64,000 nucleotides of DNA from a virus (Duplodnaviria > Heunggongvirae > Uroviricota > Caudoviricetes): IMG/VR virus record IMGVR_UViG_2671180724_000008; one strand, written 5' to 3'. The translations under genes were made by a program, and so were the position numbers. The notes under the pieces were generated by a model. The model had not been told where the DNA came from and did no database searches. It saw nothing but the letters and a program-made list of their open reading frames with translations. Of this stretch, positions 38,543 through 41,663 are shown in pieces. Position 1 is the first letter of the stretch. Each line of letters begins with the position of its first letter.

Positions 38543-39616
38543 ATGGCAAAAGGAAAATCCGCACTGGCACTTGCTCTGAAAAAGAAAATCGGTAGCAACG
38601 ACGAAATTCAGAAAGTAACCCATTGGATTGACACAGGCTTTCCTCCGTTAAACAAAGCTATTTCAGGTCGTTACGATGGCGGTTTCCCATGTGGTCGTAT
38701 CGTAGAAGTATTCGGGCCGCCAAGCGCGGGGAAAACCTTTTTGGCAACAGCAGCAATGATCTCCGCTCAGAAACAAGATGGTCTGGCGGTATTCCTCGAT
38801 CATGAGAACAGTTTTGACGTTGGCCTGGCGGTAGCCAATGGCCTGAATGCAGATGAGGATGACGGCCAGTGGGTATACAAGCAGCCTGATACCTTCGAAG
38901 ACTCTGTAGAGTTGATCGGCACAATACTTAAATTGGTACGTGATGAAGAGCTTATCCCTGAATCAGCACCTATCTGTATCGTGGCTGACTCACTTGCGTC
39001 TATGGTTCCGAACTCCAAAGCCGAGAAGTTCGAAAAGATGGCTGAAGGCACTGCCAAAGACAAAGATCAGCTAAACATGAACGACAATACGGCGCTTGCT
39101 CGTGCGACGAGCGCGAACTTCCCCACTCTGGCTTTGTGGGCACGCAAATATAACGCCTGCATCATCTTCTTGAATCAGGTTCGCACAAAAATCGGTGTAA
39201 TGTTTGGCGACCCTACGACGTCACCAGGCGGCGATTCACCGAAGTTTTACGCTTCTGTGCGCATCCGTCTCGGTGCATCGGTGATGAAGGATGGTAAAGA
39301 GAAGATCGGTCAGGACGTAGGCGCAGAGTGCATCAAAAACAAAGTTGCACCACCGTATGGCAAATGCACCTGGAAATTCTACTTCGATCCTACTCGTGGC
39401 CTCGACGTTATCGAGTCGCTCGTCGAGTACATGCTGGAAGAAGGATACCTGCCAAAGAACGCCAGCGGGCGCGTAGAAATTGGTGACAAGAAATACACCA
39501 AATCACAGATCGTCGAGATGTATCGGGAGAAGCCACTAGCTGAAATCATTGCGGCTTTACAGGCAATCGACGACCGGAGATCAAAAGACAATCCCACCGA
39601 GTCAGTAGAAGAGTAA
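38543..39616 (+). CDS. RecA-family recombinase (RecA/UvsX-like)
   Basis: 357-aa ORF. Walker A region RIVEVFGPPSAGKTFLA closely resembles RecA GRIVEIYGPESSGKTTL. Confidence 0.6.
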   Translation: MAKGKSALALALKKKIGSNDEIQKVTHWIDTGFPPLNKAISGRYDGGFPCGRIVEVFGPPSAGKTFLATAAMISAQKQDGLAVFLDHENSFDVGLAVANGLNADEDDGQWVYKQPDTFEDSVELIGTILKLVRDEELIPESAPICIVADSLASMVPNSKAEKFEKMAEGTAKDKDQLNMNDNTALARATSANFPTLALWARKYNACIIFLNQVRTKIGVMFGDPTTSPGGDSPKFYASVRIRLGASVMKDGKEKIGQDVGAECIKNKVAPPYGKCTWKFYFDPTRGLDVIESLVEYMLEEGYLPKNASGRVEIGDKKYTKSQIVEMYREKPLAEIIAALQAIDDRRSKDNPTESVEE

Positions 39617-39621
39617 ACACA

Positions 39622-39645
39622 AGGCGTCCACAGGACGCCTTTTTT
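39622..39645 (+). terminator. rho-independent terminator
   Basis: aggcgtcc-aca-ggacgcct hairpin followed by ttttt. Confidence 0.75.
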
Positions 39646-39708
39646 ATCTCTTGAAAATATATAAGTACTTACTTATCATTTTCACATAACAACCACATAG
39701 GAAAACAC

Positions 39709-39909
39709 ATGATCAAAATCTATCTATTGGCAGTAGCCACAGGCCTTTCAGTGGCTCTCATCTACGGATTACTGGTTCCGTCGCTGATTTCTGCAAAGAG
39801 TGATTTGGCCGTCATGCTTGGAGTTCTCGTTGGTTTTGGTACTCCTGTAATCGGTCTTATTGCTGGTCGTAAGTTTATTAACTCATTAATCAAAGCAAAG
39901 GGGAAATAA
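39709..39909 (+). CDS. small two-helix membrane protein
   Basis: 66-aa ORF with two hydrophobic helices. Start context cataggaaaacacATG. Immediately upstream of the SPFH gene. Confidence 0.4.
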   Translation: MIKIYLLAVATGLSVALIYGLLVPSLISAKSDLAVMLGVLVGFGTPVIGLIAGRKFINSLIKAKGK

Positions 39910-39912
39910 GTA

Positions 39913-40743
39913 ATGAAGAAACGTTTACCTGTAATTGCTCTGGCGGCTATTTGCACAATGGGTATTATTGGCTATGACCGCGTAGAACCTGGATTTGTTG
40001 GCATCAAAGTAAACAAAGTAGGTGAAGATAAAGGGATTGGTGAAGTTGTTGGTGTTGGCCACCAATGGGTAGGCATTAACACTGAACTTTATGTATTCCC
40101 GACCTTCAAACAAATGAAGATCTACGACGAGCCGTTCACATTCCAGATGAGTGACGGTACTGCTATCGGTCACAAAATTGGCGTTACGTATCTGGTTAAT
40201 CGTGACAAGGTAACGACAGTGTTCCAGACCTATCGCAAAGGCGTAGACGATATCACCGAATCAGATCTGCGTCAGAAAATTGCCGACTCTCTAAACCGTT
40301 TGGCCAGCCGTATGACCACTGACTCATTTATCGACGGTGGTAAGGCACAATTGCTGGACAACGCACTGAAAGATATTCAGAAAGAGATGTCTCCGGTTGG
40401 TATTGAGGTACTGAGCCTGTCATGGGTTGGAAAACCTGATTACCCAAAAACCGTCATTGAATCCATCAACGCCAAAGTAACGGCTAACCAGCGTACTCTG
40501 CAACGTCAGCAGGAAGTCGAACAACGTAAAGCTGAGGCGAATATGCTGCGTGAACAGGCTAATGGTGAAGCTGATGCTATCCGTGCTCGTGCGCAAGCAG
40601 AAGCAGACGCCATTCGTCTGCGCGGTGAAGCTCTGCGTCAAAACCCGAACGTTATGGAACTGGAAGCCATCAATAAATGGAATGGCCAGTTACCGCAGTA
40701 CATGACTCAAGGGGCTAACACTCCTTTCATTACCGTGAAATAA
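39913..40743 (+). CDS. SPFH / band-7 (stomatin-prohibitin-like) domain protein
   Basis: 276-aa ORF. N-terminal signal/anchor, central region with SPFH-like sequence character, C-terminal Ala/Glu/Arg-rich coiled coil (QRKAEANMLREQANGEADAIRARAQAEADAIR). Confidence 0.55.
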   Translation: MKKRLPVIALAAICTMGIIGYDRVEPGFVGIKVNKVGEDKGIGEVVGVGHQWVGINTELYVFPTFKQMKIYDEPFTFQMSDGTAIGHKIGVTYLVNRDKVTTVFQTYRKGVDDITESDLRQKIADSLNRLASRMTTDSFIDGGKAQLLDNALKDIQKEMSPVGIEVLSLSWVGKPDYPKTVIESINAKVTANQRTLQRQQEVEQRKAEANMLREQANGEADAIRARAQAEADAIRLRGEALRQNPNVMELEAINKWNGQLPQYMTQGANTPFITVK

Positions 40744-40761: not shown

Positions 40762-40786
40762 GGCGTCCAGTTGGACGCCGTTTTAT
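40762..40786 (+). terminator. rho-independent terminator
   Basis: ggcgtcc-agtt-ggacgcc hairpin followed by gtttta. Confidence 0.7.
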
Positions 40787-40838: not shown

Positions 40839-41663
40839 ATGCCCAACCACATTACAAACGAAATCCGAGTCATAGGTGGCACAAATAAACAACGCTTAGA
40901 TTTCATACGTGCCATAACTAACAAAAAAGGTCTAATTGACTTTAATACCATTTGCAGACGTCCGAAAAGTATAGAAATGGAAGAAAACAATCATATCAGG
41001 CGCATGGCCTCTGCAATGGCGGGCGAAACAGTTTACGACTACATGTTCGGTGAATTAAAGACTCCAGAACAGCTCGAATTAGCTATGCGTGAATCAGGAA
41101 TGACACGCAAGGAAATTCGCAAAATCAAAGAGCAGGCTCTTATGCGGCTTGAGAATTATCGTCGCTATGGCTATTACTCATGGTTTGACTGGTCGCGAGC
41201 TAATTGGGGAACAAAATGGAATGCCTACAACATCGAAATGCCCGTAAAACGTATCCCTACACGTATTAAGTACGGCCATAATTTCCGCCATACACACGTT
41301 CGAGCATATGCAAAACGAATCTATAAAAAACGTCTTGCAAGACATGCCGCAACTGGTGGTGAGTTGGTGATTCGCTTTGAAACAGCCTGGTCTATGCCAA
41401 AACCAATTTATCAAGCGATGGCTAGAAAGTTCCCGCACCTTGAGTTTGTAATACGTTATGCAGACGAAGACTTCGGCAATAACTGCGGATTCATTTTACT
41501 TCGCAACGGCAAATGGGAATATGACTACATTGCACCGGCGAATAACGAACAATCGTCAGAAGAAAAAATCAAATGGCGCAAGTTCGCCTTTGAGTTATGT
41601 TGTCCTGGTATCACTCCACAAGAATACGGTCTAAATGAAGAATACGAATACGCCGGATATTAA
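40839..41663 (+). CDS. hypothetical protein (conserved-looking SWFDWSRANWGTKWN motif)
   Basis: 274-aa ORF; Trp-rich motif of unknown function. Confidence 0.45.
   Translation: MPNHITNEIRVIGGTNKQRLDFIRAITNKKGLIDFNTICRRPKSIEMEENNHIRRMASAMAGETVYDYMFGELKTPEQLELAMRESGMTRKEIRKIKEQALMRLENYRRYGYYSWFDWSRANWGTKWNAYNIEMPVKRIPTRIKYGHNFRHTHVRAYAKRIYKKRLARHAATGGELVIRFETAWSMPKPIYQAMARKFPHLEFVIRYADEDFGNNCGFILLRNGKWEYDYIAPANNEQSSEEKIKWRKFAFELCCPGITPQEYGLNEEYEYAGY

Follow-up and report, generated by a model that had tools for sequence, protein, structure and literature searches.

Two adjacent genes within a 64,000-nucleotide stretch of DNA from a virus of the Caudoviricetes (IMG/VR record IMGVR_UViG_2671180724_000008; the whole of this stretch is referred to here as the window) specify a small membrane protein of 66 amino acids (aa) and an SPFH/Band-7 protein of 276 aa. 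Our analyses indicate that the two genes make up a compact module that is present in many phages and in some bacteria, and that the small protein, a putative two-helix hairpin, is an obligate partner of the SPFH protein. We propose that the module would provide a periplasm-facing, HflK/C-like scaffold at the inner membrane, a two-subunit envelope complex that contributes to maintenance of the host envelope. We give this proposal as a whole an even chance of being correct; its structural part is much more secure than its physiological part. The features of the locus are listed below (pLDDT, predicted local distance difference test; ORF, open reading frame).

39621-39641, + strand: upstream hairpin and T-run, AAGGCGTCC-ACA-GGACGCCTT, then TTTTTAT (terminator scan)
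39651-39679, + strand: sigma-70-like promoter site, TTGAAA, 17-nucleotide (nt) spacer, TATCAT (10 of 12 consensus positions match)
39699-39702, + strand: ribosome-binding site AGGA of the small gene, upstream of the 39709 start
39709-39909, + strand: small partner gene, 66 aa (PHROG 1130, homologous to N4 gp19)
39763-39804, + strand: conserved motif YGLLVPSLISAKSD, residues 19-32 of the small protein (end of helix 1 and inter-helix turn)
39900-39903, + strand: ribosome-binding site GGGG of the SPFH gene, within the 3' end of the small ORF
39913-40743, + strand: SPFH/Band-7 gene, 276 aa (PHROG 200, homologous to N4 gp20)
39913-39975, + strand: N-terminal export/anchor segment MKKRLPVIALAAICTMGIIGY (alignments)
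39979-40539, + strand: SPFH (Band_7) domain, residues 23-209 (Pfam; AlphaFold pLDDT >92 throughout)
40447-40641, + strand: long Ala/Glu/Arg-rich helix, residues 179-243 (AlphaFold2 and Foldseek)
40675-40695, + strand: C-terminal motif KWNGQLP (alignments)
40762-40779, + strand: downstream hairpin and T-run, GGCGTCC-AGTT-GGACGCC, then GTTTTATT (right edge of the cassette)

An earlier reading of the window from its letters (the original prediction) had taken the larger product to be an SPFH protein with a long coiled-coil C-terminus, and profile and fold searches bear this out. In particular, the Pfam Band_7 family (PF01145) matched the protein with E=2.3e-29, scoring 103.1 bits where the cut-off is 23.6 and spanning positions 2-176 of the 176-position profile, and PHROG 200 matched residues 1-275 with E=5.5e-102. 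An AlphaFold2 model made from an alignment of 50 diverse relatives (mean pLDDT 90.5) consists of an N-terminal helix (residues 4-19), an alpha/beta SPFH domain (residues 21-176) and a single uninterrupted helix of ~65 residues (179-243), followed by a short helix and a flexible tail. When this model was compared with the PDB by Foldseek, prohibitin (PHB1/2), HflK/HflC, erlin and stomatin were matched with a probability of 1.00 and E ~1e-13; flotillin, QmcA and the vault shoulder were matched as well, and the best matches were full-length cage subunits. As modelled, helix 179-243 is the counterpart of the coiled-coil helix that forms the wall of the HflK/C, prohibitin and stomatin cages. (Note that a match to Flotillin, PF15975, in the helical tail reached 19.9 bits and is below the cut-off of 27.) Beyond the long helix lies the KWNGQLP motif, whose Trp256 and Gly258 are invariant in alignment A1 and whose Pro261 is invariant in alignments A2 and A3 and present in at least 90% of A1. 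This motif is a candidate cap or oligomerisation element.

The small gene was likewise anticipated as encoding a two-helix membrane protein, and hydropathy analysis of its product revealed two hydrophobic stretches with a short polar turn between them and a basic tail (RKFINSLIKAKGK). The small ORF is a real gene and not a chance ORF, because its product matches PHROG 1130 (E=7.6e-26), because its ratio of non-synonymous to synonymous substitution rates (dN/dS) is 0.23 when compared with phage Cyrano, and because it is conserved beside the SPFH gene in very distant phages. Alignment of the partners from N4, P88, phiP27 and a P1-like phage with the N-terminal parts of natural fusions shows complete or near invariance of Pro24 and Ser28, and of Gly38 in helix 2, across the family; residues 24-31 make up a turn motif, P-x-L-I-S-A-x-S. 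A model of one natural fusion, P0158, has two helices with a four-residue turn between them (pLDDT 83-92 in this region). Since the C-terminal tail is basic, the positive-inside rule predicts that both termini of the hairpin are cytoplasmic (N-in/C-in) and that the conserved turn is at the periplasmic surface.

Conservation of the hairpin-SPFH pair

Searches with the SPFH protein by tblastn found relatives in 399 phage records, including N4 (61% identity), phiP27, Stx2a-converting lambdoid phages, a P1-like phage and the P2-like phage P88, as well as Vequintavirinae, Erwinia and Pseudomonas phages, Burkholderia phiE125, Caulobacter phiCbK and Lak megaphages; the module is present in both lytic and temperate phages. 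An exhaustive HMMER search over 1.84 billion cluster representatives returned 2,743 sequences related to the SPFH protein. Among the top 150 of these, ~19 are single chains of 320-390 aa, in which an extra N-terminal 55-110 residues correspond to the hairpin and are followed by a signal peptide and then by the SPFH domain. Judged by this arrangement, the long chains are natural gene fusions.

Searches with the 66-aa protein returned SSU5-family phages only (tblastn) or 33 close relatives only (word-indexed protein search). The DNA directly 5' of the SPFH gene in N4 (gp19), P88, phiP27 and the P1-like phage does hold an ORF of like length and hydrophobicity that carries the motif Y-G-L-L-V-P-S-L-I-S-A-x-S-D or variants of it. 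The wide distribution of the partner became visible only once a hidden Markov model had been built from seven phage copies and 16 fusion N-termini, with which every fetched locus was scanned in six frames. In all 86 loci where the SPFH protein is at least 61% identical to that of the window, the partner gave a single hit, on the same strand and directly upstream. In a distant set of 80 IMG/VR loci, the SPFH proteins share 41-52% identity with a family member whose own identity to the window protein is 33%. In this set the partner was adjacent upstream in 59 loci, fused in one and nearby on the same strand in 12 (immediately downstream in two of these), or ~72 of 80 together; eight had none, and none of the 80 had a partner hit on the opposite strand. 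Moreover, 19 of 22 bacterial-genome loci of this subfamily (from Dyella, Luteibacter, Leptospira, Saprospirales, Dependentiae and others) had the partner upstream, compared with 0 of 34 control loci from bacteria with other SPFH subfamilies (21-31% identity; loci mostly of ~12 kilobases (kb), range 5-13 kb). These counts uphold the co-occurrence of the pair in relatives, with a strongly conserved small ORF.

The spacing between the partner and SPFH genes is mostly -4, +3 or -20 nt, and so fits translational coupling. The analysis yielded 84 non-redundant gene pairs. Together with the fusions, the coupling suggests that the small protein, an obligate partner, is probably present in 1:1 stoichiometry. 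No third gene was conserved across the loci when all neighbouring ORFs were clustered.

The gp19 and gp20 genes of N4 (PHROG 1130 and PHROG 200) are the same two-gene module, with order, strand and tight spacing alike. The identity of 61% between gp20 ('lipoprotein') and the window SPFH protein extends over the full length; gp19, a membrane protein, aligns over its whole length with the small protein, and the motif YG(L/F)L(V/L)PS(L/M)(I/V)SA is common to both. The two systems differ in that gp20 retains a lipobox Cys (SLTSC/YDR) at the position where the window protein has Tyr, and in that N4 is a strictly lytic podovirus with the module in its RNA polymerase (RNAP)/early-middle region, whereas the window is a phage-plasmid.

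Several individual loci vary this arrangement. The hairpin gene is unannotated in phiP27 (~2300-2492 of locus L004) and in the P1-like phage MH422554 (~2320-2520 of L005), and in PhiSH19 a 206-nt gap 5' of the SPFH gene fits a hairpin gene in size. Two metagenomic viral contigs have the hairpin gene immediately 3' of the SPFH gene (L088, 2145-2321; L164, 3319-3501, a weak hit with E=0.009). One small ORF (PHROG 13358) lies between the hairpin and SPFH genes of the Seunavirus KE23 (L223, 2329-2493), and two small ORFs lie between those of the Bruynoghevirus PaP4 (L224, 1997-2440), where the one directly 5' of the SPFH gene encodes 72 aa with a hydrophobic C-terminal stretch. Seven chromosomal loci of Leptospira have a hairpin gene, an SPFH gene and a further lipoprotein gene at a conserved chromosomal position beside sdhCAB and a glycosyltransferase gene, with no phage genes nearby. 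In Leptospira sp. 'Mane' (L183, 5754-7277; also L180 and L184-L188) the three products are a hairpin of 74 aa, an SPFH lipoprotein of 277 aa and a lipoprotein of 157 aa. This triad represents a cellular version of the module, in which the extra lipoprotein may be a third component.

The N-terminus and membrane side of the SPFH protein

To judge from their N-termini, most members of the family are lipoproteins that are exported, and because the family is exported the SPFH domain is predicted to be periplasmic, as in HflK/C. At the position of codon 21 of the window gene, at least 90% of the family has a lipobox Cys, located four positions before V-x-x-G-x-V-G-V-K-V and after a signal peptide and lipobox (LTGC, LAGC, VTAC or similar). 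Of 119 close homologues, 97 have a canonical lipobox, as do 96 of 142 representatives and 85 of 86 close viral loci. The enterobacterial copies read GC/DR, and Asp at position +2 is the classic inner-membrane retention signal of E. coli. The hosts of the module are nearly all diderm bacteria.

Codon 21 of the window gene is TAT (Tyr; 39973-39975), such that the window reads MGIIGY/DR where SSU5 and Cyrano read MGLTGC/DR; note that the adjacent LT is also changed, to II. The window protein does not match the lipobox pattern [LVI][ASTVI][GAS]C, and the Cys upstream of this position, Cys15, sits in AAIC with a non-canonical Ile at -1. With Tyr in place of the lipobox Cys, the window copy is therefore not a lipoprotein. 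The Tyr allele is not a sequencing error, since it is carried on >250 contigs (clusters P0001-P0011). Moreover, the Cys has been replaced independently by Tyr, Trp or Phe in other lineages (clusters P0036, P0042, P0047 and P0048), and hence the lipid anchor has been lost repeatedly. We infer a periplasmic topology for the window copy itself. Its attachment presumably relies on a signal helix that stays uncleaved or, should signal peptidase I cut after I-I-G, on the partner protein only.

Genomic setting of the cassette

The window is an SSU5-like phage-plasmid, as the original prediction had supposed of its setting. In PLSDB, 254 plasmids of ~100-125 kb match the region, and 251 of these are non-mobilizable; they derive from Escherichia, Enterobacter, Salmonella, Klebsiella, Citrobacter and Shigella. 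The phages SSU5, Cyrano, PhiR41_1 and CMS-2020a match it as well. Of 5,426 complete E. coli genomes, 196 (~3.6%) carry the cassette, with 195 copies on plasmids.

Both ORFs are on the + strand and in the same frame, with TAA GTA alone between the two, and each is preceded by a purine-rich ribosome-binding site. The unit is bounded by terminators, as predicted: the hairpin at 39621-39641 terminates the preceding RecA-like gene and forms the left edge of the cassette, and the hairpin at 40762-40779 forms its right edge. Between the upstream hairpin and the small ORF lies the promoter-like site at 39651-39679, which may function as a promoter, and the stretch CTTGAAAAT..ACTTACTTATCATT is near-invariant in the window, Cyrano and SSU5. 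Homology with Cyrano, PhiR41_1 and one CMS-2020a record ends at ~40832, just past the second hairpin; that with SSU5 ends at ~40822, and its identity over the cassette region is only ~77%. Because the promoter-like site and the hairpins are kept in SSU5 and Cyrano and homology ends beyond the second hairpin, the cassette is a discrete, conserved unit with the layout of a moron and is probably transcribed by host RNAP. Both flanking hairpins (39623-39639 and 40762-40779) have the identical 7-bp stem GGCGTCC/GGACGCC, of which there are only these two copies in the window (none is expected by chance in 64 kb); both stems are invariant in Cyrano and SSU5, and the loops and flanks vary. The shared stem could represent a common terminator type or a trace of insertion of the cassette.

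The small gene and the SPFH gene are both under purifying selection; for the SPFH gene dN/dS is 0.20 when compared with Cyrano and 0.04 when compared with SSU5. Note that between the window and Cyrano the small gene is by far the more divergent, with a dS of 0.65 versus 0.12 for the SPFH gene and a protein identity of 73%, and the dN of the SPFH gene is only 0.024. This greater divergence suggests a recombination breakpoint inside the cassette.

In agreement with the predicted location in a recombination and replication region, genes for a 5'-3' exonuclease and a RecA/UvsX-like protein lie 5' of the cassette; in Cyrano the neighbours also include genes for UvsY, a gp32-like single-stranded DNA-binding protein and RepA. 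The RecA/UvsX-like gene (38543-39616) is 1,074 nt here compared with 2,340 nt in Cyrano (3778-6117 of L001). A match to the 779-position PHROG 9666 was also obtained for this gene, and a LAGLIDADG homing endonuclease is annotated there in one E. coli plasmid; the window gene is an allele without an intein or homing endonuclease. Directly 3' of the cassette is a variable slot, which in the window and in some E. coli plasmids is occupied by a gene (40839-41663, 274 aa) for a DUF1281_C/Api92-like ferredoxin-like domain (PHROG 12644) and in Cyrano and SSU5 by other genes.

Annotation of both genes at the level of domains is already public and is not new. The SPFH gene is labelled 'SPFH domain-containing protein', 'stomatin-like', 'lipoprotein' or 'serine protease', and the small gene 'membrane protein' or 'hypothetical protein'. 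(Other labels in the SPFH family are 'transposase fusion protein', 'mobile element protein', 'transferase' and 'QmcA'.) Domain searches on the window SPFH protein gave no support for the serine protease, transposase fusion, mobile element, transferase or QmcA labels. What is new is the obligate nature of the partnership, the existence of fusions, the periplasmic topology proposed here, the alleles that have lost the lipobox, and the breadth of the module over phages and some bacteria.

Possible functions of the module

In the mechanism we favour, the two genes would encode two subunits of a single envelope complex. Export would bring the SPFH protein to the periplasmic side of the inner membrane, where it would be lipid-anchored in most relatives and, in the case of the window copy, held by an uncleaved signal helix and/or the hairpin partner. 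It would oligomerise through its 65-residue helix and the C-terminal K-W-N/D-G-x-L-P motif to form an HflK/C-like dome. The turn of the hairpin (P-x-L-I-S-A-x-S) would face the periplasm and dock on the membrane-proximal side of the SPFH domain, and the hairpins would supply the transmembrane fence or rim that in HflK and HflC is part of each chain itself, making the module a 'split' HflK/C. Such a complex may corral or stabilise a patch of inner membrane, by way of stabilisation, organisation or control of a membrane client. Phages would borrow the module as an auxiliary unit with its own host-type promoter, outside replication, recombination and lysis, so as to keep the inner membrane of the host functional while the phage infects or is carried. 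We favour a generic envelope function because Leptospira chromosomes carry the pair without phage genes.

HflK and HflC have, like the window protein, an SPFH domain followed by a long wall helix, and their periplasm-facing orientation at the inner membrane is the one suggested here for the window protein. They are its sole NCBIfam and PDB sequence matches, and these are weak (E=2e-7 and 7e-3); the HflK/C structures are ~16-17% identical to it. Scores fell far below the equivalog cut-offs for HflC (TIGR01932; 30 bits versus 134.4) and HflK (TIGR01933; 18.2 bits versus 159.4). Moreover, HflK/C has two paralogous SPFH subunits, each with its own transmembrane helix, whereas the window has one SPFH gene and a non-SPFH hairpin, and the anchor of HflK/C is an N-terminal transmembrane helix on the same chain, whereas in the window family a lipid or signal peptide serves as the anchor together with a hairpin protein encoded separately. 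Failure at these cut-offs and the lack of a second SPFH paralogue place the window protein outside the HflK and HflC families.

Several points weigh against the scaffold proposal. There is no detectable partner in eight of the 80 distant loci and three of the 22 genome loci. The N-terminal h-region of the window protein is short, at ~15 residues, and its Cys anchor is lost; cleavage by signal peptidase I at I-I-G/Y could release a soluble periplasmic protein, making anchoring uncertain. The contact between hairpin and SPFH protein and the formation of a cage are drawn by analogy, and 'membrane maintenance' is a weak and generic function that leaves the wide retention of the module by phages unexplained. 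The original prediction had called the function in a phage-plasmid unknown, and this still describes the literature: the role of a phage SPFH protein 'is still not clear' according to a 2021 paper (PMC8540360), a June 2026 paper agrees, and our literature search found no paper on the hairpin partner, the fusions or the function of the phage SPFH pair. (PM0222, a possibly related HflK/C-like protein of a Pasteurella multocida prophage, is reported to be associated with outer-membrane vesicles and to be a TLR1/2 agonist; PMC9872710.)

Membrane organisation for replication, which had been put forward for the window pair, is not indicated, because the pair is a mobile module of many phage types and of Leptospira chromosomes that has no shared third neighbour. 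Moreover, the lipoboxes of the family place the SPFH domain in the periplasm, which argues against its organising cytoplasmic replication machinery. The suggestion of exclusion fares somewhat differently. Here the hairpin and a periplasmic layer of SPFH protein would block entry of a second phage's genome, or the damage that this phage does to the envelope, by analogy with T4 Imm plus Sp and with HK97 gp15. T4 Imm and Sp, like other superinfection-exclusion membrane proteins, are small proteins that lie in the inner membrane and face the periplasm and are expressed early or from prophages, and the likeness is one of function only, as they have no sequence or fold relation to the window pair. 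The moron-like unit with its own putative host-type promoter and terminator would suit such a role, as would the PHROG category of the partner ('moron, auxiliary metabolic gene and host takeover'), the envelope location suggested by the lipoboxes, and the occurrence in lytic and temperate phages alike, as is the case for superinfection-exclusion genes. In N4 (gp18) and PhiSH19 (PMC3220722) the gene next to the module is P22 gp17-like and is classed as 'superinfection exclusion' (PHROG 1510); in phiP27 the module is close to int/xis, and a P4-like satellite has a gene of the HflK/C family beside int (PMC4936722). However, the adjacency to PHROG 1510 is not general, and neighbours are not conserved across loci. 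(We considered the P22 gp17-like gene as a conserved third member and rejected it, as the equivalent gene in KE23 is unrelated and the clustering of neighbours was negative.) Furthermore, no defence model in PADLOC-DB v2 matched either protein at E<=1, our literature search found no exclusion phenotype reported for the module, and a defence gene would not usually sit in a conserved chromosomal context of the housekeeping type, as the pair does in Leptospira. We regard exclusion as unlikely. An extension of the scaffold proposal into phage-phage or phage-host conflict, in which many phage lineages would use a split HflK/C-type cage to wall off the entry site of a rival genome or to neutralise membrane-targeting abortive-infection effectors, we consider similarly doubtful.

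A phage cage might instead mimic HflK/C, binding or enclosing FtsH or another membrane protease and so shifting the turnover of CII-like regulators, LpxC or membrane proteins. A link with HflK/C has been proposed in phage genome papers (PMC4936722, PMC8540360); HflK/C-FtsH structures are among the top fold matches, and the sequence matches and periplasmic orientation described above are as this mimicry would have them. Yet the scores and structural identity are as low as given above, the module is common in strictly lytic phages, which make no lysogeny decision, and it pairs one SPFH gene with a non-SPFH partner where HflK/C needs two paralogues; such mimicry is quite improbable. Still less probable, in our estimation, is the suggested role in lysis timing, by which the small protein would be a class II holin-like or antiholin-like hairpin with triggering controlled by the SPFH protein. 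The small protein does have the gross features of a holin (~66 aa, two transmembrane helices, a charged C-terminal tail), and lysis by phage N4 is delayed. However, no holin family in Pfam or PHROGs matched it, the pair is located among early, replication or accessory genes and outside the lysis cassette in SSU5, Cyrano, N4, phiP27, P88, the P1-like phage, KE23 and PaP4, and the Leptospira chromosomal pairs have no phage genes nearby. (A spanin of the Rz/Rz1 type, suggested by lipobox and coiled coil, was rejected given the SPFH domain, the enterobacterial Asp at +2 and the site outside lysis cassettes.) We give almost no credence to a canonical SPFH-NfeD operon in which the small ORF is a short NfeD. 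The SPFH domain of QmcA faces the cytoplasm, whereas the window family is exported. In SPFH-NfeD operons such as QmcA-YbbJ (PDB 8z5g) and Pyrococcus PH1511-PH1510, as in the window, an SPFH protein and a membrane partner are encoded in one operon, and QmcA is a significant fold match to the window SPFH protein; pairing of SPFH with NfeD genes is common (PMC13086221), and the window does encode a small membrane protein directly beside its SPFH gene. This partner, however, matched no Pfam family, NfeD included, at E<=0.01, and is not of the NfeD type. It is unrelated in sequence to NfeD, and with two transmembrane helices within 66 residues it lacks a protease domain and has no room for an OB-fold domain. 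Gene order and a periplasm-facing lipoprotein SPFH are also unlike QmcA-YbbJ.

SPFH scaffolds (HflK/C, prohibitins, stomatin and flotillins) are known structurally as membrane cages; their role in bacteria is mostly unclear, and their carriage by phages is an acknowledged puzzle. The module described here is a compact, self-contained two-gene version with an obligate, non-NfeD partner, with fusions that fix stoichiometry and with natural Cys-to-Tyr variants of the anchor. For annotation, the small gene has been missed in phiP27 and one P1-like phage, and 'lipoprotein' is not valid for every allele. If the module proves to be a device for exclusion or anti-defence, its importance would rise substantially: a cage used in phage-phage or phage-host conflict would mean that a scaffold protein underlies a new and very widespread class of exclusion or anti-defence system acting at the envelope. 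The question lends itself to direct testing, because the module is present in tractable systems, namely N4, SSU5-like phage-plasmids, and P2-, P1- and lambda-like prophages.

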